From IMG/VR virus record IMGVR_UViG_2541047889_000001: a stretch of DNA of 44,368 nucleotides. One strand, given 5' to 3'. Position numbers and translations under genes: made by a program. Positions 3,467 to 41,621 of the stretch are shown here, piece by piece. The first letter of the stretch is position 1; every line of letters starts with the position of its first letter. The stretch is from a virus (lineage: Duplodnaviria; Heunggongvirae; Uroviricota; Caudoviricetes). A model generated the notes under the pieces. The model did not search any database and was not told where the DNA came from. It saw only the letters and a program-made list of their open reading frames with translations.

Positions 3467-6400
3467 TCAACGAATACTGATGCCGGAAGCGGCTTTTTTG
3501 GTCACAATCACCGTACAGTCGGTGATATTACCTGCCCACTGATTGCCTTTATGGAAAACCTTAAACTCCAGAGTGACGCTTCCCCTGCCACTCGGCATAT
3601 CAATAACCGCACTGTAGCTACCGGGAATGGCCCCTTTAGTTTCTCTGGATGCGATTAATACACCGTTTTTGCGAACTTCAAAACCATAACCCGTGTATCT
3701 TGTACCTCCCGGGTTATTACCACTTCCCGGATCGCTATACGCTATTCCGTTAAAGATAATGGGCGGAATAATGATTTGACGGTCAAAGTTATGATCATCG
3801 CTGATGGTGACTGTAACCGTCCCGTTTGGTGTTTCCGTGTTACCCCACGTACCAGCCTGTTTCGGAAATGATTTGGATACAGCTTTAACGAAGTCACCTC
3901 TGACCTGAGTCGCCTCCAGCATGCCCTTAATCGTACAGTTTTCATTTACCGTGACATTGTTGAGCGTCCCGGCGTTCGCATTCACACTGCCACTGATATC
4001 CGCATTTTTAGCGGTCAGCTTTCCGTCTGATGTCAGGGAAAATACCGGAGGACTGCCACCACTGGTAATGGTGGGGGCCGTCAGGCGCTTCAGGAACACG
4101 TCGTTCATGAATATCTGATTGCCCTGCGCCACAAACATCGGCGTTTCATTCCCGTTTGCCGGGTCAATAAATGCGATACGGTTAGCGGCAACCAGAAACT
4201 GACTCAGTTTGCCTTCCTCCGTGTCCTCCATGCTGAGGCCAATACCCGCGACATAATGTTTGCCGTCTTTGGTCTGCTCAATTTTGACGCCCCACATGGC
4301 ATTCCACTTATCGTTGGCGTCCTTCCACTCTTTCGAAAACTCCTCCAGTCTGCTGGCGTTATCCTCCGTCAGCTCGACTTTTTCCAGCAGCTCCTTGCCG
4401 AGATGGGATTCGGTTATCTTGCCTTTGAAAAAATCCAGGTAACCTTCCGCATCATCGCTCGCCCGACCGACGGCCTCCACGAATGCCGATTTGCCAACGG
4501 TGTTCACACTGCGGATATAAAAGTAATAATCATGGCCCGGTTTGATATTGATACTGGCGGCTATCCAGTACAGCGCCGTACCAAGATAGCGGGCTGTGGT
4601 TTCAACCTGCCTGATATCGGTAATCCGCTTTTCCGAGAACCAGAACTCAAACTGTACCGTCGGGTCATAAACGGCAAGATGCGGCGTGGCGGTTATCTGA
4701 AAATAGCCCGGCGTCAGCTCAATCCTCGACGGTGCTGCCGGTGCGGCAATCCGGAACGATACCGACGCCGGATCGCCCTGCTGCCCCCACGCATTTACCG
4801 CCCGGACTGTCAGCCTGTAGTTCCCCAGCGCCAGTTGCCTGAAGCGGTATGTGGTTTCCGTCGTCCGGGCCGTGCTGACCAGCCGCTCACTGCCGTCATC
4901 CGCTGTTACGGTCAGACGGAGCAGGAAGCTCACGCCCTTCACCACCTTCGGCGTGTCCCAGCGCGCCAGCACCTGATATTCCCCGCTGTCTGCGGTGACT
5001 TCGGCGGTCAGGTGCTGCACCGCTGGCGGCGTGACACCATTCACCGTGCCGCTCTGGTCGCCGTCAAAGTACGCCCCGTTATCCACGATGGCCTCTTTTT
5101 CCGGTACATGCTGCACGGCGGTGATGGCATACGTGCCGTCGTCGTTCTCACGGATACTCACGCAGCGGAACAGGCGCTGGCGCAGCGTCGGCAGCTTCAG
5201 CCCCCACACGCTGTATTCAGCAACACCGTCAGGAACACGGCTCACTTTCACCTTCACGCCGTCGGTGACGGACTGAACCTCCACGCTGATCGGATTGCCA
5301 CTTCCGTCAACCAGGCTTATCAGCGTGGTACCGGAGGATGGCAGCGTGATTTCACGGTCGAGCGTCAGCGTCCGGGTCTGGCTGTTTACCGCCAGCACGC
5401 GCCCGCCGATGCTGATACCGGCATAGTCATCATCACAGATTTCAATGACATCGCCCGGTACATGGCGAAGCCCTTCTGCGCCCACGCAGAAGTCCACGGT
5501 CTGCGTTTCCAGCAGTTCTGTTTTAATCAGCCACAGCCCGGCGCGGTGTGCCTGCCCCCGGCTGGTACAGCCAAAAGCATCCATCTTCGTGACGTTACGA
5601 CCGTAACGGGCAATGGCCTGCGTATCCTCCACAAGCTCTGTCGCCGTCTCCCAGCCGTTGTTCGGGTCAATCCAGTTCACCTCAACGGCATTATGGCGGT
5701 CTTTCAGGGCGCTGAAACTGTAGCGGAACGGCGCGCCATCATCCGGCATCACCACATTACTGCGGTTATAGGTCCACACCTTATCCGACGGTCGGTCCTG
5801 CACGAACGTCAGCGTCTGCCCGTTCCATACCGGCATACAGCGCATCGCCGAGCAGAAATCACTGAGCACATCCCACGCCTTGCGCTGTGTGGTCAGGTAC
5901 GCATTACAGGTGATGCGCGGCTCCGTGCCGCCAAAGCCGTCCGGCACTGACTGGTCGCAGTACTGGCCGATGACATACAGCGCCCATTTGTCCACATCCG
6001 CCGCACCAAGACGTTTCCCCATGCCGTAGCGTGGATGGGTCAGCATATCCCACAGACACCAGGCCATGTTATTGCTGTATGCTGGCTTAAACGTTCCGTC
6101 CCAGATACCGCTGTATTGCCGCGTCTGCGGGTTATAGTTCGACGGCACCTGCAGAATACGCCCGCGCAGATGATAATTACGGCTCACCTGCTGGCTGCCG
6201 AACTGCTCCGAATCCACCTGTACGCCGACCAGTGCCGTGTTCGGGTAGCACTGTTTCACATCGATGATTTCGGTGTATGACGACCAGAGCGTTTTGTTCT
6301 GCAGCTGGTCTGTGGTGCTGTCCGGCGTCATCCTGCGCATCCGGATATTGAACGGGCGCGGCGGCAGGTTACCCACCACCACCGAGGCCAGATACTGTGA

Positions 6401-29463: not shown

Positions 29464-29918
29464 TACGCCTCCTGCTTGTCGCGCAGCAGCTGGAACTCGC
29501 AGCTCTGCGGAATAGTCAGGTGGCAGCCAATATTCATCGCCCAGGCTTCAACCTTACACAGGAAGACATACATCTCTCCGGTATCAAGATCGGAGGTATG
29601 GCGTAACGACTGGATAGTAGTGATTTCGCCGGTTACGACATCAACCAGGTCCTTGGTTTCATAACCGAGGTATGTGTGTTTGAGAGCATCTTTTACCCAT
29701 GCTGCGGTAGCGAACGATTTCCCCCTGCTGATGAGGTATTCACTGATTTCGCTGTACCACATATGGCTGAGTGCATTCTGGGAAAGACTGCGTTTCTCAC
29801 GCCACGGTTTAAGCACCATGCGAAAGCATTTTCCGTCCTCCAGATAAGGCTGGATCTGCTGGCCGATAGCGATGAAGTTACCGCGATGCAGTTTGATGCC
29901 ATCTTGTGGTAGGTTCAC
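29463..29918 (-). CDS. ninB: NinB-family recombination protein (YbcN-like)
   Basis: 151 aa, [62 protein letters not shown]...; matches DLP12 YbcN from memory. Confidence 0.8.
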
Positions 29919-30365
29919 GCTTCACCTCCACAGAGGTCAGACGCTGGATGCAAAAAAACGCAGGTGCATTTCTGCATCTGTGAAGGGAGAAGAGAGTTTG
30001 GATTGTGTGTGCGCATAAACGTCCCCGTTTAGCGCAGAAGTCACCGGAGTTGTTCAGGCTCCGGTGATACAATTATGGCGAATTGATTATTCATAATCAA
30101 ACAAGATAAGGTCTCAAACTTCATGCAAGCCAAGATTTATTTCTGACAGAATTATACAAAGAAGCTATTGGTCAGAATCTACTCGGACTGTAAAACATAC
30201 GCATAACCTTAAGCTCTCACTTTAAGCATTGTTGAAATAATAGCCGTCAAGTACAACCTTAACCACGACTGGGATATTTCTCTGGCTACCACGAGTTGTA
30301 CGGCTATTAAACTGCCGTTAAATTCAGTAAGAGAATTTCATCCGATAAGTCAAGGCATGTAAAAC

Positions 30366-34243: not shown

Positions 34244-34941
34244 ACACTTGCTCCTTTCAGTCCGAACTTAGCTTTGATTTCTGCGATCTTCGCCAGAGCC
34301 TGTGCACGATTTAGAGGTCTACCGCCCATGACAGGAAGTTGTTTTACTGGTTCAGGGATCGCCTCACCACGGTTAATTCTCGCAGTCATATGGACAAGCT
34401 CATCTGCGGCCTTACGGCGTAATTCCGCATCAGTAAGCGCATTGGCCCGCATGTTCTGATACAGGTTGGTAACCAGCCAGTAGTGCGCGTTTGATTTCCA
34501 CGGATAAGACTCCGCATCCGGATACAGGCCTCGCTTCCGGCAATACTCGTAAACCATATCAACCAGCTCGCTGACGTTTGGCAGTCCGGCGATAACGGAT
34601 GCTTCTTCCCGGCACCATGCAACAAACTGCCCGGGTGATGGCAGAAATGGTCGATTCTGCCGACGGGCTACGCGCATTCCTGCGTTAACCTGTTCCATTG
34701 TGGTGATCCCGTTTTCCCGGAAAGCCAGAACCCACTGGCGGCGGATTTCATTCAGTTCGTTCTGGTCACGGTTAGCCAGACTCGCCGGGAAAGTTGCCAG
34801 TAACTGGCTGAACACACCGTTGATGATCTGCGCTACCTGCTGTACCTGCGGCTTTTCGTCGTACTGTTCCGGCATGTTGTTGGCGATCCGGCGCATCTGC
34901 TCACGGTCAAAGTTAACCATCTGTGCGGCGATGTTTTTCAT
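34240..34941 (-). CDS. P: Replication protein P (DnaB helicase loader)
   Basis: 233 aa, MKNIAAQMVNFDREQMRRIANNMPEQYDEKPQVQQVAQIINGVFSQLLATFPASLANRDQNE...; matches lambda gpP from memory. Confidence 0.95.
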   Translation of the reverse strand: MKNIAAQMVNFDREQMRRIANNMPEQYDEKPQVQQVAQIINGVFSQLLATFPASLANRDQNELNEIRRQWVLAFRENGITTMEQVNAGMRVARRQNRPFLPSPGQFVAWCREEASVIAGLPNVSELVDMVYEYCRKRGLYPDAESYPWKSNAHYWLVTNLYQNMRANALTDAELRRKAADELVHMTARINRGEAIPEPVKQLPVMGGRPLNRAQALAKIAEIKAKFGLKGASV

Positions 34942-35915
34942 AAATCCACCCCGTAAATCCAGTCAGTGTTTGTCAGGTCGAGTTTTGATTTTCCGGCTGT
35001 CACGCCAGCCTGTTGCTTGTTACGGTTGATTTCGAGTTGAGTCCACTTGTCGCGGAGTTTGGCCGGACTCAGCACGTTACCGGACCAGAAGTTGTCCTGG
35101 CATGCCCAGCGGAACAGCACGCACATGTCGCGGTGGTTACGTCCGTCACGTTCACGCATCAGGCGGATATCGTTAGCCCACCCTGCAAAATTTGGTTTTC
35201 TGGCTGATGGCGCGATGGTCTTCACCATGTCAAACATCCACTCTGCGGCGGTCAGGTCTTCTGCTGTCCCCCACTTGCTGCCGCTCTGAATTGCAGCATC
35301 CGGTTTCACCACAGGAAGATCGTTTTCTGGCTGGTCAGAGGATTCGTCAGAATTCTCGGACGAAAAAGGTTTTATATTGTCTTTTGTTAGTTTGTCTTTT
35401 GTGTTTACCTGATTCGGGTAAACGCCTTTACCTGATTTGGGTAAACTTTTCTTACCTGATTCAGGTAAATTTACCTCTTTCAGGTAAACTTTATTTTTCT
35501 TACCTGATTCAGGTAAATTTACCTCTTTCAGGTAAACTTTATTTTTCTTACCTGATTCGGGTAATGTTGACCATTCACTGACCACATTATTAATGCCGAT
35601 ATTCCGCCCGCTCTGAATAAAAATCCCACGCTTTACCAGAACACTTTTTGCAGCAGAACACTTGTGCGGCAATATCCCGGTCAACTCGGAAAGTTGCTCG
35701 TTGCTCACCCAATCCAGTTTTTTATTAAAGCCATATGTTTTGCGCATGACAGCCAGGAAGACCAGAAGCTGGTGCTGTGTTAATCCGGCCAGCATCACAG
35801 CTTCCAGCAACTCATTTGCAATGCGCGTATAACCATCATCGAGATCTGCCACGCGCGGCTCCTTTTGTGCCACATCCGGCACTGGAAAATTGAATATCTC
35901 AGCAGTGTTTGCCAT
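34938..35915 (-). CDS. O: Replication initiator O: non-lambda N-terminal iteron-binding domain, lambda-like C-terminal domain
   Basis: Start placed at ATG 35915 (MANTAEIFNFPVPD...) with a strong GGGAGG upstream; an alternative start is ATG 36005, which overlaps the upstream stop. The C-terminal half matches lambda O from memory; the ori iterons lie inside the gene. Confidence 0.88.
   Translation of the reverse strand: MANTAEIFNFPVPDVAQKEPRVADLDDGYTRIANELLEAVMLAGLTQHQLLVFLAVMRKTYGFNKKLDWVSNEQLSELTGILPHKCSAAKSVLVKRGIFIQSGRNIGINNVVSEWSTLPESGKKNKVYLKEVNLPESGKKNKVYLKEVNLPESGKKSLPKSGKGVYPNQVNTKDKLTKDNIKPFSSENSDESSDQPENDLPVVKPDAAIQSGSKWGTAEDLTAAEWMFDMVKTIAPSARKPNFAGWANDIRLMRERDGRNHRDMCVLFRWACQDNFWSGNVLSPAKLRDKWTQLEINRNKQQAGVTAGKSKLDLTNTDWIYGVDL
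35405..35565. repeat. Replication origin iterons (seven 18-bp TTACCTGATTCRGGTAAA-like repeats) within O, including a 48-bp perfect tandem duplication
   Basis: Repeats at 35405, 35428, 35452, 35471, 35500, 35519 and 35548, five with clear dyad symmetry (TACCTGA / TCAGGTA). Units 35452..35499 and 35500..35547 are identical. An AT-rich tract follows at about 35335..35404. Confidence 0.8.
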
Positions 35916-36001
35916 AATTCCTCCCGCAATGAGTGTGTTACGATTTGCACCTGAAAGTCGGTTCTGTTCGCGCAGACCGGCTTTCGCCATTTCCGAACCT
36001 G

Positions 36002-36547
36002 TCATATTGCCCCCAGCATGGTGGTGACCATCGCCATCAGTGGACCAGCCAGATCCGGGTCCACACGAAACATCGACACAATGCCTTCACTCATCTCCTT
36101 CAGTTTCTGGTGGCGTGGTGCGTTGAGAATGACAGCCTGTTTTGCCTCACTGAGTTCCTTTTCCATTTCAGCCAGCCGAGCCATGAAGCTATCCTGCTCA
36201 ACCAGGTGGCCGCGATATTCCAGCGGTAGTACCGCCAGAATTGCCGGGGTCAGTTCACGCACGTTATTTCGGTATTTTTCAGAATCGAATTTGTTATCGA
36301 GGAAGCGGAACAGCTTCTGGCGTGCACGGCTGACATCATCAGGAAAATCGATGGTGCCGCCGCCCTGCTCCCGATACTCATTCACAATGAGTGCGGCAAC
36401 AACATCCTGATTATCTGCAGCCGACCAGGCGCGAACGGCATCACGGATTTTTTCGTGGCCTGGCGCCTGTTTTGTTTGAGAACGATTTATCACCGCAGTC
36501 GGGCTAAATCCGCTAGTCTGTTGGTATGTAAGTGGTTGCATAGTCAT
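36002..36547 (-). CDS. YdaT-like protein in the cII position (Rac-type regulator)
   Basis: 181 aa; segments NEYREQGGGTIDFP and RNNVRELTPAILAVLPLEYRGHL resemble Rac YdaT as remembered. Stop overlaps the upstream ATG at 36005. Confidence 0.55.
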   Translation of the reverse strand: MTMQPLTYQQTSGFSPTAVINRSQTKQAPGHEKIRDAVRAWSAADNQDVVAALIVNEYREQGGGTIDFPDDVSRARQKLFRFLDNKFDSEKYRNNVRELTPAILAVLPLEYRGHLVEQDSFMARLAEMEKELSEAKQAVILNAPRHQKLKEMSEGIVSMFRVDPDLAGPLMAMVTTMLGAI

Positions 36548-36571
36548 TGCCTTATCAGTTAACGCCGCAGA

Positions 36572-36799
36572 TTAGGCGGCAGAATTACTCGCGTTAAACA
36601 ATGGTGCGAGGTCGGGACGAATATCTGCTGGTTTAATCTTTCCACCAGTGGCTGAGACAATTTTCATTACATAGCGGGCATCAATTCCGCCACCGTGTAG
36701 CCAACGCCAAACAGTGGGCTGGGCTACACCGCATAGATCTGCCAGTCGTTTTTGACTACCTGTAATACTGATTGCGAGTTGAATGGTTTGATTTGTCAT
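36572..36799 (-). CDS. cro: Cro-like small HTH regulator (YdaS-type)
   Basis: 75 aa, MTNQTIQLAISITGSQKRLADLCGVAQPTVWRWLHGG...; ATG at 36799 with AGGA upstream. First gene of the rightward early operon, divergent from the repressor gene. Confidence 0.7.
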   Translation of the reverse strand: MTNQTIQLAISITGSQKRLADLCGVAQPTVWRWLHGGGIDARYVMKIVSATGGKIKPADIRPDLAPLFNASNSAA

Positions 36800-36909
36800 T
36801 ATTAATTCCTATTGGTATTACAATGAATAAATAATAGCAATGCGTATTAATCATAACAATAGCAAAACGTGTTTTGACCATCAATACGCAAGCGTATAAA
36901 TTAAAACTT
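36800..36909. promoter_or_regulatory. Right operator/promoter region: divergent pR (minus) and pRM-like (plus) promoters with three operator-like sites
   Basis: Minus-strand pR: -35 TTGTTA (36859..36854), 17-bp spacer, -10 TATTAT (36836..36831). Plus-strand pRM-like: -35 TTGACC (36874..36879), -10 TATAAA (36895..36900), no Shine-Dalgarno before the cI ATG at 36910. Operator-like AATA-N8-TATT sites at 36832..36849, 36857..36873 and 36881..36898. Confidence 0.6.
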
Positions 36910-37602
36910 ATGAAAAAAGAAACTCTTGCTGATCGCTTAAACCTAGCGATGGAACAATCTGGAATGTCTCAAGGCGCTCTTGCAAAGGCGTCTGGCGTAG
37001 CTCAACCCACAATCTGGAGACTGACAAGCGGCAACGCGCGCGGCTCAACAAAAATTGTTGAAATAGCTAATGCATTGGGTGTTCGAACAGAGTGGCTCTC
37101 ATCAGGCATAGGCCCGATGAGAAATGACGGTCAACAATTAGGGAAGCCTACTGCCAACCATCCCAAATACTTCAAGATTGACGTTCTTGATATAGAAGTG
37201 AGTGCCGGGCCGGGAGTCATCAACCGTGAGTTTGTAGAAGTTCTACGCTCGGTTGAGTACTCGTTTGACGATGCTCGTCACATGTTCGATGGTAGGAAGG
37301 CAGAAAATATCCGCATCATTAACGTACGCGGTGACAGCATGTCAGGAACGATTGAACCTGGTGATCTTCTATTCGTTGATATCACGGTTAAATCTTTCGA
37401 CGGTGATGGTATCTATGCGTTTCTGTACGACGACACAGCCCATGTAAAGCGCCTGCAAATGATGAAGGATAAGCTGCTGGTTATCTCTGATAACAAAAGC
37501 TACTCACCGTGGGACCCGATCGAGAAAGATGAGATGAACCGGGTATTTATCTTCGGGAAAGTTATTGGGAGCATGCCGCAGACGTATAGGAAGCATGGAT
37601 AG
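36910..37602 (+). CDS. cI: CI-like prophage repressor (N-terminal HTH, C-terminal S24 LexA-like peptidase domain)
   Basis: Start at ATG 36910 (MKKETLADRLNLAMEQSGMSQGALAKASGVAQPTIWRL...); C-terminal VRGDSMSGTIEPGDLLFVD and a downstream Lys (HVKRL) form the Ser-Lys dyad; Ala-Gly cleavage-type site EVSAGPG. The track ORF starts at an upstream TTG. Confidence 0.85.
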   Translation: MKKETLADRLNLAMEQSGMSQGALAKASGVAQPTIWRLTSGNARGSTKIVEIANALGVRTEWLSSGIGPMRNDGQQLGKPTANHPKYFKIDVLDIEVSAGPGVINREFVEVLRSVEYSFDDARHMFDGRKAENIRIINVRGDSMSGTIEPGDLLFVDITVKSFDGDGIYAFLYDDTAHVKRLQMMKDKLLVISDNKSYSPWDPIEKDEMNRVFIFGKVIGSMPQTYRKHG

Positions 37603-37682
37603 TACCAATTAAAAATTATCAACCGGGCATTGTGCTCATTCAGTAAAACAACTTAATTATTCATTTTAGAATGGAGAACTTA

Positions 37683-38744
37683 ATGGATACTTTAAAATAT
37701 GAGAAATTCTCTGATTTTGATCACAATGACCCATTTTTTGACTCTTTAAAAAAAGATTATAAAGAGTTTCCTCTTTGGTTAGAAAAAAAAGCCAGAGAAG
37801 GAGAATCAGCTTATGTGCTCTATGATGACAAGCATAAAATCGAAGGTTTTATGTATCTAAAAGAAAATGATGATGCAAATGACATTAATCCAGCGCTCCC
37901 ACCAGGACGTCATCTAAAGATAGGAACATTCAAATTTGAATCTAAAGGCACCCTTCGCGGACAACGATTTCTAAAAAAAGCGTTTGACCATGCATTTTCA
38001 TCAAAATCTGATGATATTTATGTTACTGTTTTCGACAAACACGTCCATCTAATAAAACTTTTCCAAACGTACGGATTTTACATTCATGGTGAAAAAGAAA
38101 CACATAACGGGAAAGAGTTTGTATATGCGAGGTCTTTGCATGAGCCTTATGGTGATATTTTATTAGATTACCCTCGAATAATGACATCAAGGGCCAACAA
38201 ATATTTACTGGCGATTTATCCCGAATATCACACTAGACTATTCCCTGATTCAAAACTTGTAAATGAATCACCAGATATTGTCAAAGATATATCCCATGCT
38301 AACAGCATTCATAAAATTTACATATGTGGAATGCGTTCTGTGATGGGAATGAAAAGAGGAGATATCATTGTCATCTATAGAACCGGAGACAAAAAAGGGC
38401 CAGCTCGCTATCGTTCTGTAGCCAGTACATTATGTGTAGTTGAGAGCGTAAAAAATATTTCTGAATTTTTAAGCGAAGATAGTTTTGTAGACTATTGTAT
38501 TCGTTTTAGCGTATTTTCTGAAGATGAACTCAGAAAAATCTATAAAGAACGTCGATACCCTTTCATTATAAGATTCACATACAATCTGTCTTTGTCAAAG
38601 AGACCCAATCGTGCTATTTTAATAGATCATGTGGGGCTAAATGGTTCGCGTGCATTCCGATGGAGTCACTTTAAACTCACAAATGAGCAGTTCTTAAAGA
38701 TCATCGAGTTAGGCAAGATAAATGAAAGTTTTATTATCCATTAA
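37683..38744 (+). CDS. Hypothetical two-domain protein: N-terminal GNAT-like acetyltransferase fold, C-terminal PUA-like/unknown domain
   Basis: AT-rich gene immediately downstream of cI. ATG 37683 is preceded by GGAG; the track starts at ATG 37671, which has no Shine-Dalgarno. GNAT-like motifs LRGQRFLKKAF and LIKLFQTYGFYIHGE. Domain assignment is by eye only. Confidence 0.6.
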   Translation: MDTLKYEKFSDFDHNDPFFDSLKKDYKEFPLWLEKKAREGESAYVLYDDKHKIEGFMYLKENDDANDINPALPPGRHLKIGTFKFESKGTLRGQRFLKKAFDHAFSSKSDDIYVTVFDKHVHLIKLFQTYGFYIHGEKETHNGKEFVYARSLHEPYGDILLDYPRIMTSRANKYLLAIYPEYHTRLFPDSKLVNESPDIVKDISHANSIHKIYICGMRSVMGMKRGDIIVIYRTGDKKGPARYRSVASTLCVVESVKNISEFLSEDSFVDYCIRFSVFSEDELRKIYKERRYPFIIRFTYNLSLSKRPNRAILIDHVGLNGSRAFRWSHFKLTNEQFLKIIELGKINESFIIH

Positions 38745-39099
38745 GCCTGAGTTTGCAGAAAAAATATTGAACGGAACAAAGCGGTTCGAGTTTCGTAAAG
38801 GTATATTCAAAAATCCGCAAATTAGCACCGTTGTTATTTATGCCACGATGCCATTAGGTAAAGTTGTTGGTCAATTCCGTATTGAATCAATACTAAGTGA
38901 CGAACCGGAATCTCTTTGGAAAAAGACGGAAAAACACGCAGGTATTTCTAAGCAATTTTATGACTCATATTATTCAGGTAGAGAAAAGGCCTACGCAATA
39001 AAAATTGGTGAAGTGGAAAGATATAAAGAACCAATTCCTATCTCTGCTCTAGGTAGTAATATTAAGCCACCACAATCATATCTTTACCTACCTGCGTAA
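38722..39099 (+). CDS. ASCH-domain protein (PUA-like)
   Basis: 125 aa, MKVLLSIKPEFAEKILNGTKRFEFRKG...; canonical ASCH N-terminal pattern. Overlaps the upstream gene by 23 nt; AT-rich. Confidence 0.65.
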   Translation: MKVLLSIKPEFAEKILNGTKRFEFRKGIFKNPQISTVVIYATMPLGKVVGQFRIESILSDEPESLWKKTEKHAGISKQFYDSYYSGREKAYAIKIGEVERYKEPIPISALGSNIKPPQSYLYLPA

Positions 39100-39103
39100 G
39101 AAT

Positions 39104-39130
39104 CCCGGCCACCGTGCCGGGTTTTCTTTT
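39104..39130 (+). terminator. Rho-independent terminator after the cI-proximal cassette
   Basis: cccggc-caccgt-gccggg followed by ttttctttt on the plus strand, 5 nt after the ASCH gene stop. Confidence 0.7.
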
Positions 39131-39252
39131 GTCCCCTCATCACACAAACCGTTCGAAAAACCACCACATCCTCCCTTCAGTTATCGCTATGCGATACAAG
39201 TCACAAAATTAATTCTTTTTGCTATCAAACAGTTAATATCAAAACACATCAA

Positions 39253-39297
39253 TCAATAGCAATAAGTATTGATACAGCCAATAGCAATAGCTATTAT
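39253..39297 (+). promoter_or_regulatory. pL-like promoter with two operator-like sites (OL)
   Basis: -35 TTGATA (39269..39274), 17-bp spacer, -10 TATTAT (39292..39297). Operator-like TCAATAGCAATAAGTATTGA (39253..39272) and CAATAGCAATAGCTATTA (39279..39296) share the AATA-N8-TATT pattern with the OR sites. Confidence 0.6.
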
Positions 39298-39370
39298 CAC
39301 CATGTCGCAACAACACAACGATACGGCAATCACCTGATTCACCGTTGCGATGACCGCTTAGATCCGCAGC

Positions 39371-39781
39371 TTGAATTTCAGCAGGCTCCGGGGAGTGCGA
39401 GGGGTGAAGCGGACGCGTGAACGTCGGTGTGACCAGCTGAAATCAACTCAACACCTCATACCTCAGTCGCTTCAACGAGGCGGCTTAGTTATGACAACCG
39501 GCGGCCATCCACCGCCTGAATACGCGCAGAAGTCTCTATATGTTCAGCAGCCCAGCTTACGGGCAGGAGTTTTTATGGTTCATCAACATTACGGAACGCA
39601 GACCGTTAATCGCGGTGCGGTCATGCCAGGAATGCTGGTCAAACACAAAGATGGTACCTGGACTGCATCAGCTAATTTACGCGGACGGCTTTATCTGCAT
39701 CGCGGCATCGAGCGCACTTATACCCGTGATTTGCTCGTGGAAGTTTTTCTCGACGGACGCGGCAACGGCCTGAATCACTAA
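39371..39781 (+). CDS. Possible N-like antiterminator (Arg-rich N-terminal motif); start uncertain
   Basis: First ORF after the pL-like promoter. If translated from TTG 39371 or GTG 39404 the N-terminus contains [16 protein letters not shown], resembling the Arg-rich motif of N proteins. The first ATG is at 39491 ([11 protein letters not shown]...). Confidence 0.35.
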
Positions 39782-39856
39782 TCCCCTTTCCTGTTTACCT
39801 AATCAGCCCGGCATTTCGCAGGCGATATTTTCACAGCCATTTTCAGGAGTTCAGCC

Positions 39857-40153
39857 ATGAACGCTTATTACATTCAGGATCGTCTTGAGGCTCAAAGCTG
39901 GGCGCGTCACTACCAGCAGATCGCCCGTGAAGAGAAAGAGGCAGAACTGGCAGACGACATGGAAAAAGGTCTTCCACAGCACCTGTTTGAATCACTCTGC
40001 ATCGATCATTTGCAACGCTGCGGGGCCAACAAAAAAGCCATTACCCGTGCGTTTGATGACGATGTTGAGTTTCAGGAGCGCATGGCAGAACACATCCGGT
40101 ACATGGTTGAAACCATTGCTCACCACCATGTTGATATTGATTCAGAGGTATAA
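39857..40153 (+). CDS. gam: Gam, host RecBCD inhibitor (short form)
   Basis: 98 aa, [54 protein letters not shown]...; matches the C-terminal 98 aa of lambda Gam from memory. Confidence 0.9.
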
Positions 40154-40158
40154 AACGG

Positions 40159-40944
40159 ATGAGTACAGCACTCGCAACGCTAGCCGGGAAGCTGGCTGAA
40201 CGTGTCGGCATGGATTCTGTCGACCCACAGGAACTGATCACCACTCTTCGTCAGACGGCATTTAAAGGTGATGCCAGCGATGCGCAGTTCATCGCATTGC
40301 TGATCGTCGCCAACCAGTACGGCCTTAATCCGTGGACGAAAGAAATTTACGCCTTCCCTGATAAGCAGAACGGCATCGTTCCGGTGGTGGGCGTTGATGG
40401 CTGGTCCCGCATCATCAATGAAAACCAGCAGTTTGATGGCATGGACTTTGAGCAGGACAATGAATCATGTACGTGCCGGATTTACCGCAAAGACCGCAAT
40501 CATCCGATCTGCGTTACCGAATGGATGGATGAATGCCGCCGCGAACCATTCAAAACTCGCGAAGGCAGAGAAATCACGGGGCCGTGGCAGTCGCATCCCA
40601 AACGGATGTTACGGCATAAAGCCATGATTCAGTGTGCCCGTCTGGCCTTCGGATTTGCTGGTATCTATGACAAGGATGAAGCCGAGCGCATTGTCGAAAA
40701 TACTGCATACACTGCGGAACGTCAGCCGGAACGCGACATCACTCCGGTTAACGATGAAACCATGCAGGAGATTAACACTCTGCTGATCGCCCTGGATAAA
40801 ACATGGGATGACGACTTATTGCCGCTCTGTTCCCAGATATTTCGCCGCGACATTCGCGCATCGTCAGAACTGACACAAGCCGAAGCAGTGAAAGCTCTTG
40901 GATTCCTGAAACAGAAAGCCACTGAGCAGAAGGTGGCAGCATGA
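40159..40944 (+). CDS. bet: Bet single-strand annealing recombinase (Red-beta)
   Basis: 261 aa, [66 protein letters not shown]...; matches lambda Bet from memory. Confidence 0.96.
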
Positions 40945-41621
40945 CACCGGACATTATCCTGCAGCGTACCGGGATCGACGTGAGAGCTGTCGAACAGGGG
41001 GATGATGCATGGCACAAATTACGGCTCGGCGTCATCACCGCTTCAGAAGTTCACAACGTGATAGCAAAGCCCCGCTCAGGAAAGAAGTGGCCTGACATGA
41101 AAATGTCCTACTTCCACACCTTGCTGGCTGAGGTTTGCACCGGTGTGGCTCCGGAAGTTAATGCTAAGGCGCTGGCCTGGGGAAAACAGTACGAGAACGA
41201 CGCCAGAACCCTGTTTAAATTCACTTCCGGCGTGAATGTTACTGAATCCCCGATCATCTATCGCGACGAAAGTATGCGCACCGCCTGCTCTCCCGATGGT
41301 TTATGCAGTGACGGCAATGGCCTTGAGCTGAAATGCCCGTTTACCTCCCGGGATTTCATGAAGTTCCGGCTCGGTGGTTTCGAGGCCATAAAGTCGGCTT
41401 ACATGGCCCAGGTGCAGTACAGCATGTGGGTGACGCGAAAAGATGCCTGGTACTTTGCCAACTATGACCCGCGTATGAAGCGTGAAGGACTGCATTATGT
41501 CGTGGTTGAGCGGGATGAAAAGTACATGGCGAGTTTTGACGAGATGGTGCCGGAGTTCATCGAAAAAATGGACGAGGCACTGGCTGAAATTGGTTTTGTA
41601 TTTGGGGAGCAATGGCGATGA
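40941..41621 (+). CDS. exo: Exo 5'-3' exonuclease (Red-alpha)
   Basis: 226 aa, [65 protein letters not shown]...; matches lambda Exo from memory. Confidence 0.96.

Follow-up and report, generated by a model that had tools for sequence, protein, structure and literature searches.

A predicted lambda-type immunity switch with its own operators in a lambdoid prophage of the ST104/BTP1 repressor type

Which repressor specificity governs lysogeny in the tailed virus (Caudoviricetes) recorded in IMG/VR as IMGVR_UViG_2541047889_000001? The record is a stretch of 44,368 nucleotides, analysed as a whole and called the window here; its early region is lambdoid, with the orientation reversed relative to lambda. 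An earlier reading of this DNA, referred to below as the original prediction, placed an immunity region with non-lambda operators at 36800-39300. We find that the cI and cro genes are divergent and 110 bp apart, that three inverted repeats (dyads) in the gap overlap back-to-back pR and pRM promoters, and that operators of the same sequence type recur at pL, 2.4 kb from the first set. From the sequence, we consider it very probable that a lambdoid prophage has its immunity module here, built as a lambda-type bistable switch with a DNA specificity of its own. In kind it is an ordinary lambdoid switch of a widespread, experimentally uncharacterised immunity type, and the findings leave the understanding of such switches unchanged.

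Operator dyads at the two promoter regions

Three dyads related to AATA-N8-TATT occupy the right operator region (OR), the 110 bp between cro and cI (36800-36909), and two more lie in the AT-rich pL/left operator (OL) region at about 39210-39300. The original prediction had all five sharing this pattern: OR1 (36833-36848, AATAGCAATGCGTATT), OL2 (39255-39270, AATAGCAATAAGTATT) and OL1 (39280-39295, AATAGCAATAGCTATT) do so exactly, but OR2 (36858-36873, AATAGCAAAACGTGTT) and OR3 (36883-36898, AATACGCAAGCGTATA) are each one base off, the mismatch of OR3 at 36898 being the A at position 2 of the pRM -10 hexamer. The centre-to-centre spacing, earlier put at about 24.5 bp, has to be corrected to exactly 25 bp for OR1-OR2, OR2-OR3 and OL2-OL1. 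The centres of OR2 and OR3 fall 44.5 bp and 19.5 bp before the cI ATG.

In an unbiased search that enumerated all 256 four-base inverted half-sites with spacers of 4-12, AATA-N8-TATT gave the most matches in the two regulatory regions, with 6 inside them and 20 in the rest of the window. Exact copies number three in the 44-kb window (0.43 expected), all of them in OR or OL (36833, 39255 and 39280). When 25 non-identical orthologous sites, taken from other genomes, were used to train a symmetrised position weight matrix (PWM), the five dyads came out as its five best matches in the window: OR1 has the top score (28.9), followed by OL2 (27.4), OL1 (24.0), OR3 (21.7) and OR2 (16.2). Beyond an overlapping pair at 36798 and 36804 (15.0 and 14.8), the next best score is 9.6 or less. 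Operator-like sites at both divergent promoter regions, as originally proposed, were thus recovered at the named places. The refined motif reads AATA(G/C)(C/G)-N4-(G/C)(C/G)TATT, with A or T favoured at the two central positions.

The sites are also conserved. A phylogenetic footprint over eight loci of E. coli, Salmonella (ST104 and BTP1) and Klebsiella, aligned without gaps, showed variation in none of the 24 half-site columns, against 4 of 24 operator-centre columns and 34 of 68 other columns. Scanning one genome per species added five genomes, from three species of Kluyvera, Citrobacter pasteurii and Raoultella lignicola. All five encode the recognition helix QPTIWRL found in the window's repressor, and their OR sites lie exactly at -77, -52 and -27 from the cI ATG, positions that are constant in all 13 loci with this helix. 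One of the five has GATA in place of AATA in OR1, and the non-consensus TGTT half of OR2 is itself conserved (13/13 loci). The OL pair is 25 bp apart in 12/12 relatives; in the five added genomes it lies 1.8 to 2.9 kb downstream, whatever cargo genes stand in between.

The dyads coincide with promoter-like sequences. On the minus strand, pR (36831-36859) combines the -35 element TTGTTA (36859-36854) with the -10 element TATTAT (36836-36831) and a TG extension, and scores 9/12 in a promoter scan. On the plus strand, pRM (36874-36902) has TTGACC (36874-36879) and TAAATT (36897-36902), also scoring 9/12, and pL (39269-39297) has TTGATA (39269-39274) and TATTAT (39292-39297), with a joint-best score for the region of 10/12; the spacer is 17 bp in each case. 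The -10 hexamer common to pR and pL is the operator half-site TATT followed by AT, and the two promoters have mirror-image geometry: OR1 and OL1 overlap their -10 elements, and OR2 and OL2 abut their -35 elements. OR2 lies between the -35 elements of pR and pRM, and OR3 overlaps the pRM spacer and -10. In the eight aligned loci the pR -10 is invariant, the TTG of the pR -35 is kept and both pRM hexamers are invariant. The sites overlap sigma-70-like pR, pRM and pL in the lambda arrangement, in agreement with the original prediction.

Might the dyads instead be chance AT-rich repeats, or promoter elements (-10 or UP-like), that bind no repressor? The A+T content of the regulatory regions is about 74%, two of the half-sites double as -10 hexamers (TATT+AT), and matches with one mismatch are only modestly enriched across the window (26 vs 16 expected). 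However, Markov models built from the local AT-rich composition of the regions themselves give P of about 2e-4 for three equally spaced sites in an OR-like 110 bp and about 1.7e-4 for two exact sites in an OL-like 101 bp. The half-sites are invariant in the eight loci, which span three genera, while the spacers between them diverge. The strongest point is that a change of recognition helix comes with an exchange of all the dyads, as described in the next section. We regard an origin by chance or as promoter sequence as barely credible.

The predicted count of three OR and two OL sites agrees with the five strong dyads, to which a degenerate third OL dyad has to be added. This site (39235-39250, AATATCAAAACACATC) lies 20 bp upstream of OL2, and a doubtful fourth OR dyad (36804-36819, AATTCCTATTGGTATT) lies in the cro leader, where it overlaps the cro Shine-Dalgarno (SD) sequence. 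The layout might accordingly be four OR and three OL sites rather than the lambda-like three and two, with CI and Cro perhaps using partly different subsets, as has been proposed for the E. coli O157:H7 prophage CP-933P, which has four repeats at OR (PMC8630535). The PWM score of the fourth OR dyad (14.8) approaches that of OR2 (16.2), and its half-sites are kept, around a variable centre, in five genera (E. coli, Klebsiella, Kluyvera, Citrobacter and Raoultella). At OL, sites at the same offset from OL2 have one mismatch in BTP1 (AATAACAAAAACCATT) and Klebsiella phage KpVIM8.2 (ST11-VIM1phi8.2; AATAGCCATTGCTATC) and are good in Raoultella (PWM 18.7); the window's own candidate lies inside an OL block of about 95 bp that is swapped between immunity types and reaches about 45 bp upstream of OL2. 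Yet the fourth OR dyad is 29 bp from OR1 in the window and 28 bp in Kluyvera, off the fixed 25 bp found elsewhere. It is lost in ST104 and BTP1, and its conservation can be explained by the cro SD within it. As for the third OL candidate, it has lost its right half (CATC) in the window and scores only 6.5. We consider the larger layout unlikely and continue with three OR and two OL sites.

Recognition proteins and a natural exchange of specificity

The cI gene (36910-37602, plus strand) encodes a 230-residue repressor with a 434-like helix-turn-helix (HTH; GVAQPTIWRL; Pfam HTH_3, E=1.8e-6) and an S24 autopeptidase domain (Peptidase_S24, E=1.3e-18). It contains an Ala99-Gly100 cleavage site, catalytic Ser143 (in GDSM) and catalytic Lys180 (in VKRL), and its matches in PDB include the 434 repressor N-terminal domain (E=1.5e-5) and UmuD (E=9e-5). 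Over the whole protein it is 40% identical to HK022 CI, and its C-terminal domain belongs to the HK022-CI family. The S24 character on which the original prediction drew is present, but S24 alone does not set the repressor apart from lambda, whose CI is also an S24 protein.

The divergent cro gene (36572-36799, minus strand) encodes 75 residues with a YdaS-type HTH (GVAQPTVWRW; Pfam YdaS_toxin, E=9.6e-15; PDB 3bd1 and 5w8y, the Xfaso-1 Cro family). An alignment of Cro with the cI N-terminal domain covers 65 residues at 32% identity (pairwise E=4e-9), and the two have the block GVAQPT[IV]WR in common. Because the codons of this block differ between the two genes at most third positions, the likeness looks like old paralogy under selection and not like recent gene conversion.

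A set of sister phages, here called type B (the window being type A), provides a natural cassette swap. Type B is carried by PhiR47_2, PhiR5_1, PhiR34_1, PhiR26_1, Turner, IdasGreatGrand and a Klebsiella grimontii prophage. Their cI has essentially the same C-terminal domain as that of the window, whereas its HTH (SQAAIQKIETG) and their Cro differ. The exchange comprises cro, OR and the cI N-terminal domain and, separately, the OL block of about 95 bp, whose flanks align near-identically between the two types. Type-B operators read ACAACC-NN-GGTTGT and are 434-like 14-bp sites of the form ACAA-N6-TTGT, of which OR has three and OL two at intervals of 23-24 bp (PhiR47_2 locus extract, 1875-1935 and 4295-4332); the type-A PWM finds no match scoring at least 10 in the 10.7 kb of the type-B locus. 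Since the swap replaces helix and dyads together, the dyads travel with the recognition helix, as operators should. The same exchange bears out the proposal that this prophage has its own immunity specificity. In type B, a -10 element (TACATT) lies 6 nt before the cI ATG, a likewise leaderless-looking geometry.

We also compared the helix with the published "evolutionary code" of Cro proteins, which pairs Gln at H1 with A+2, Ser or Thr at H3 with G+5, and Lys at H6 with C+6 (PMC6649833). Aligned without gaps to lambda Cro, the window's HTH motif has Gln at H1, Thr at H3 and Arg at H6, and the half-site A1-A2-T3-A4-G5-C6 fits the three pairings if Arg is counted as Lys-like. The type-B residues Gln, Ala and Lys fit x-A-C-A-A-C (Ala at H3 with A+5). 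As both half-sites fit the code, the change from Thr to Ala at H3 appears to go together with that from G to A at base 5. We take this fit as a supporting inference only for the pairing of helix and operator. The paired type-A and type-B cassettes nevertheless offer a clean natural data point for the Cro/CI code, with Thr or Ala at H3 set beside G or A at base 5.

Proposed working, the start of cI and the surrounding genes

In the switch that we propose, CI and Cro, which both carry Q-P-T-x-W-R, would bind the 16-bp dyad of the refined motif as dimers. During lysogeny, CI on OR1 and OR2 would cover the pR -10 and abut the pR -35, and CI on OL1 and OL2 would do likewise at pL, so that the lytic genes would be shut off. 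The distance of OR2 from the cI start would suit CI bound there to activate pRM, in the manner of lambda CI. Being weak, and conserved as such, this site is probably occupied only in cooperation with OR1 at a distance of 25 bp; together, the fixed spacing and the conserved weak OR2 are suggestive of cooperative binding. Through OR3, over the pRM -10, CI would limit its own synthesis and Cro would repress cI. Induction would follow from RecA-stimulated self-cleavage at Ala99-Gly100.

A more speculative thought is that the switch is built leaky, with little loop-mediated control at OR3 and a "hair-trigger" or a high rate of spontaneous induction, like phage 933W, which lacks OL3. It stems from the conserved weakness of OR2 and from the third OL site, which is vestigial in the E. 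coli lineage. The homoimmune phage BTP1 reportedly shows very high spontaneous induction, which a leaky switch could explain; similar behaviour would then be predicted for the prophages that carry this module in about 13% of complete E. coli genomes. We think it improbable that the switch is leaky in this sense.

The original prediction also held that the cI mRNA is leaderless, with a pRM-like -10 about 10 bp before the ATG and no SD. The distance proved to be 7 nt (TAAATT ends at 36902 and the ATG starts at 36910); the other half of the statement stands, as we read no SD upstream of this ATG, whereas cro has AGGA 7 nt before its own. The length of the gap is constant in 13/13 loci while its sequence drifts (AAAACTT, GAATATT, TGAGATT, AAAAACC and others). 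The A of the ATG is the eighth base after the -10, and the seventh is T. Sigma-70 start-site selection favours a purine at such positions, and with T at the seventh base a start at the A of the ATG is reasonable. We judge that the cI mRNA is probably leaderless, with pRM transcription starting at this A or a few nucleotides from it. Leaderless mRNAs have been found by experiment for lambda cI and for paaR2 of CP-933P, whose switch likewise has YdaS and YdaT partners (PMC8630535). In BTP1, the cI-bstA operon is expressed in lysogens from a single transcription start (PMC7067206); the BTP1 cI ATG maps to D23580 coordinate 379527 on the minus strand of FN424405.

Alternatively, the switch could be real and cI not leaderless, with transcription starting further upstream or translation from an in-frame TTG at 36874. 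The reading frame is open from this TTG, a longer cI is annotated in BTP1, PhiR5_1, PhiR34_1 and Turner, and the 12 upstream codons are free of stops in all relatives. In the related phage SaltyDalty a GGAGG stands about 9 nt ahead of the cI ATG; leaderlessness is therefore not general among the relatives. In the window, however, this TTG opens the pRM -35 hexamer, and no SD precedes it. Among relatives the 12 in-frame upstream codons vary freely in the amino acids that they would encode, the last three reading LKL, LNI, FEI, LKT and LKI, whereas the N-terminus MKKETLA(D/E)RLN is nearly constant, which argues that the codons before the ATG are non-coding. The -10 and the ATG stay 7 nt apart throughout, and a stop-free run of 12 codons is not unlikely by chance. 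A cI mRNA with a leader is, in our estimate, the lesser prospect of the two, though a serious one, and we retain the leaderless start.

Several points weigh against the switch as we have drawn it. The region contains no more promoter-like sites than shuffled sequence (8 vs 9.0); because shuffled sequence scores equally, the promoters rest on position and conservation and not on the scan alone. The PWM, being trained on orthologous sites, is not independent of the window. By that matrix OR2 hardly outscores the cro-leader dyad (16.2 vs 14.8), and the functional OR sites could be four. The register of the Cro-code comparison was chosen after seeing the data, and Arg at H6 is outside the residues of the published code. 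Several GenBank records start cI at an upstream TTG (756 or 726 bp), which would not be leaderless, and our literature search found no reports of binding, footprints or transcripts for this immunity type.

The genes around the switch are arranged in lambdoid order. Leftward of cro lie a 181-residue YdaT-family gene in the cII position (36002-36547, minus strand; Pfam YdaT_toxin, E=7.6e-30; PHROG 163 "CII-like transcriptional activator", E=4.4e-67) and an O-like replication gene (34938-36005, minus strand). On the plus strand, cI is followed by two co-oriented cargo genes in the rexAB position (37671-39099), which encode a 357-residue protein and a 125-residue ASCH protein and match the PADLOC candidate defence system PDC-M11 (PDC-M11A, E=1.9e-133; PDC-M11B, E=6.8e-52). 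The cI-cargo operon is closed, upstream of OL, by an intrinsic terminator (39104-39131, plus strand) of six G-C pairs followed by TTTTCTTTTG, which is kept in relatives. The annotation of phage PhiR47_2 calls the cargo pair "GevT toxin / GevA antitoxin"; a literature search on these names returned unrelated papers only. Relatives have other genes in this slot (a SIR2 protein, a DUF6932 pair, a HipA-like pair, bstA or a ParA-like protein), and it is from this variety that we take the slot to be a cargo hotspot expressed in lysogens.

Downstream of pL, on the plus strand, come Kil (match from about 39548, ending at 39781), Gam (39857-40153), Bet (40159-40944) and Exo (40941-41621). We could recognise no N antiterminator gene downstream of pL, where about 270 nt (39298-39575, plus strand) precede Kil without an annotated gene. 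The leader there does not resemble the HK639 putL-like RNA, its fold is unexceptional (z = -1.5), and Rfam at E<=1 over 36000-40200 returned chance eukaryotic matches only. An open reading frame (ORF) from a TTG at 39371 has an arginine-rich start that recalls the arginine-rich motifs of N proteins; its match to Kil is confined to residues 60-136. A perfect palindrome, TATCGC-TAT-GCGATA (39182-39196), stands between the cargo terminator and OL and is absent from the O157:H7 version of the region. It is kept in type-A and type-B phages, which places it outside the swapped immunity block.

Distribution and comparison with known switches

The region is 99.9% identical to that of the temperate coliphages 4A7, Lambda_4C10, D2, 1W and 3W, and Perceval has the same cro-OR-cI module at 98.7% identity; 4A7 and Perceval belong to the genus Bievrevirus. 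The segment from cro through OR to the cI N-terminal region is present in 726 of 5,426 complete E. coli genomes (about 13%), O157:H7 included, and the module recurs in the Salmonella phages BTP1, ST104 and SE1 and in prophages of Klebsiella, Kluyvera, Citrobacter and Raoultella. O157:H7 strains have it at about 97.5% identity. In O157:H7 TB21-1 (locus extract, 4001-4223), cro is annotated as frameshifted and the cargo is a SIR2 gene; this prophage may be locked in the repressed state. Knowledge of the operators should aid the design of reporters or virulent mutants, as well as the reading of the expression of defence cargo cotranscribed with cI.

Like lambda, the window has divergent cI and cro genes, three intergenic operators over pR and pRM, further operators some 2.4 kb off at pL, a repressor of the self-cleaving S24 kind and, separating cI from OL much as rexAB does, cargo genes and a terminator. 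The differences are a 434-like HTH in the repressor, two strong OL sites, a YdaT-family protein in the CII position, the 25-bp spacing and the lack of a recognisable N gene downstream of pL. The lambda operator is 17 bp long. Its symmetry runs through a central base pair (PMC6649833), in contrast to the dyad here, which is 16 bp with its symmetry falling between two base pairs. The pRM -10 stands just before the ATG, as in lambda, whose cI mRNA is leaderless (PMC8630535). The predicted unlikeness to the lambda operators held, in that OR and OL contain no lambda-type site even with up to three mismatches allowed. With no such operator, and no lambda CI chain among the PDB matches of the window's cI, lambda immunity was rejected.

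The likeness to 434 lies in the cI N-terminal domain, which aligns with the 434 repressor DNA-binding domain, and in the homology of Cro to this domain. In 434, cro derives from a duplicated cI N-terminal domain (PMC6649833), which the window parallels, unlike lambda. In contrast to 434, the window's Cro belongs to the YdaS/Xfaso-1 Cro family, and 434-like operators belong to the type-B sister. We rejected 434 immunity, as ACAA-N6-TTGT has no match in the window and, despite the like HTH fold, the helix is QPTIWRL and not QQSIEQL. HK022 was considered because the ST104 record describes its cI as "similar to HK022"; it was set aside, with CI only 40% identical and operators of the TGAAC-N-GTTCA type.

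CP-933P, with its PaaR2, YdaS and YdaT proteins, resembles the window in its YdaS-type Cro and YdaT-type CII partners and in having OR-like and OL-like sets (PMC8630535). Its repressor gene was found to be leaderless by rapid amplification of the 5' ends of cDNA and N-terminal sequencing, and its switch is bistable (PMC8630535). PaaR2 differs in being about 15 kDa (by mass, too small for an S24 domain) and the cargo is a paaA2-parE2 toxin-antitoxin pair. Despite the same partners, CP-933P was rejected as the source of specificity, its repeats, GTTTAGTAA, four of them at OR, indicating a different one. CP-933P YdaT recognises the inverted repeat TTGATT-N6-AATCAA (PMC9986795). Near OR we found only a match with two mismatches, over the cro start. 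An exact copy lies at 30083-30100 (about 0.003 expected by chance in 44 kb, by our own estimate), in the intergenic region separating the end of a leftward gene, near 29918, from a rightward ORF of 347 residues that reads like a secreted hydrolase with a hydrophobic N-terminus. This repeat may be a target of the window's YdaT-like CII.

Phage 933W likewise has three OR sites, its OL lacks a third site, and its repressor binds OR1 and OR2 non-cooperatively (PMC5977221). It differs in repressor and operator sequences, and some relatives of the window do have a third OL site.

The closest counterpart is the switch of ST104 and BTP1. Residues 19-58 of CI are identical to those of ST104 CI, the Cro helix QPTVWRW is identical, and so are OR2 and OR3, with OR1 differing by 1 nt, in the centre; the 102 N-terminal residues of cI as a whole are only 77% identical to the ST104/BTP1 type. 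The operator spacing is the same, with OL in a two-site or three-site form. By these residues and sites, the predicted immunity specificity of the window is that of the ST104/BTP1/Para-1 repressor type found in P22-like Salmonella phages. A distinct, experimentally unstudied "ST104" repressor specificity was listed in 2008 by Villafane et al. (PMC2629481), and Owen et al. noted that ST104 and BTP1 have an immunity region in common that is unlike that of P22 (PMC5322425). In the searchable literature we did not find the operator sequences of this type, most subscription journals lying outside the search, so that an earlier description is possible; the Bievrevirus papers that we found do not treat the switch. 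The operators of the ST104/BTP1-type switch appear not to have been described before. Outside the immunity region the phages part ways: ST104 and BTP1 are P22-like podoviruses and the window is a lambda-like Bievrevirus, and the two sides differ in virion and replication modules, in CII type, in cargo (bstA) and in whether an N/gene-24 antiterminator is present. The operator motif and its 25-bp spacing would accordingly predict homoimmune phages across genera and virion types, of which the window on the one side and ST104 and BTP1 on the other would be examples.

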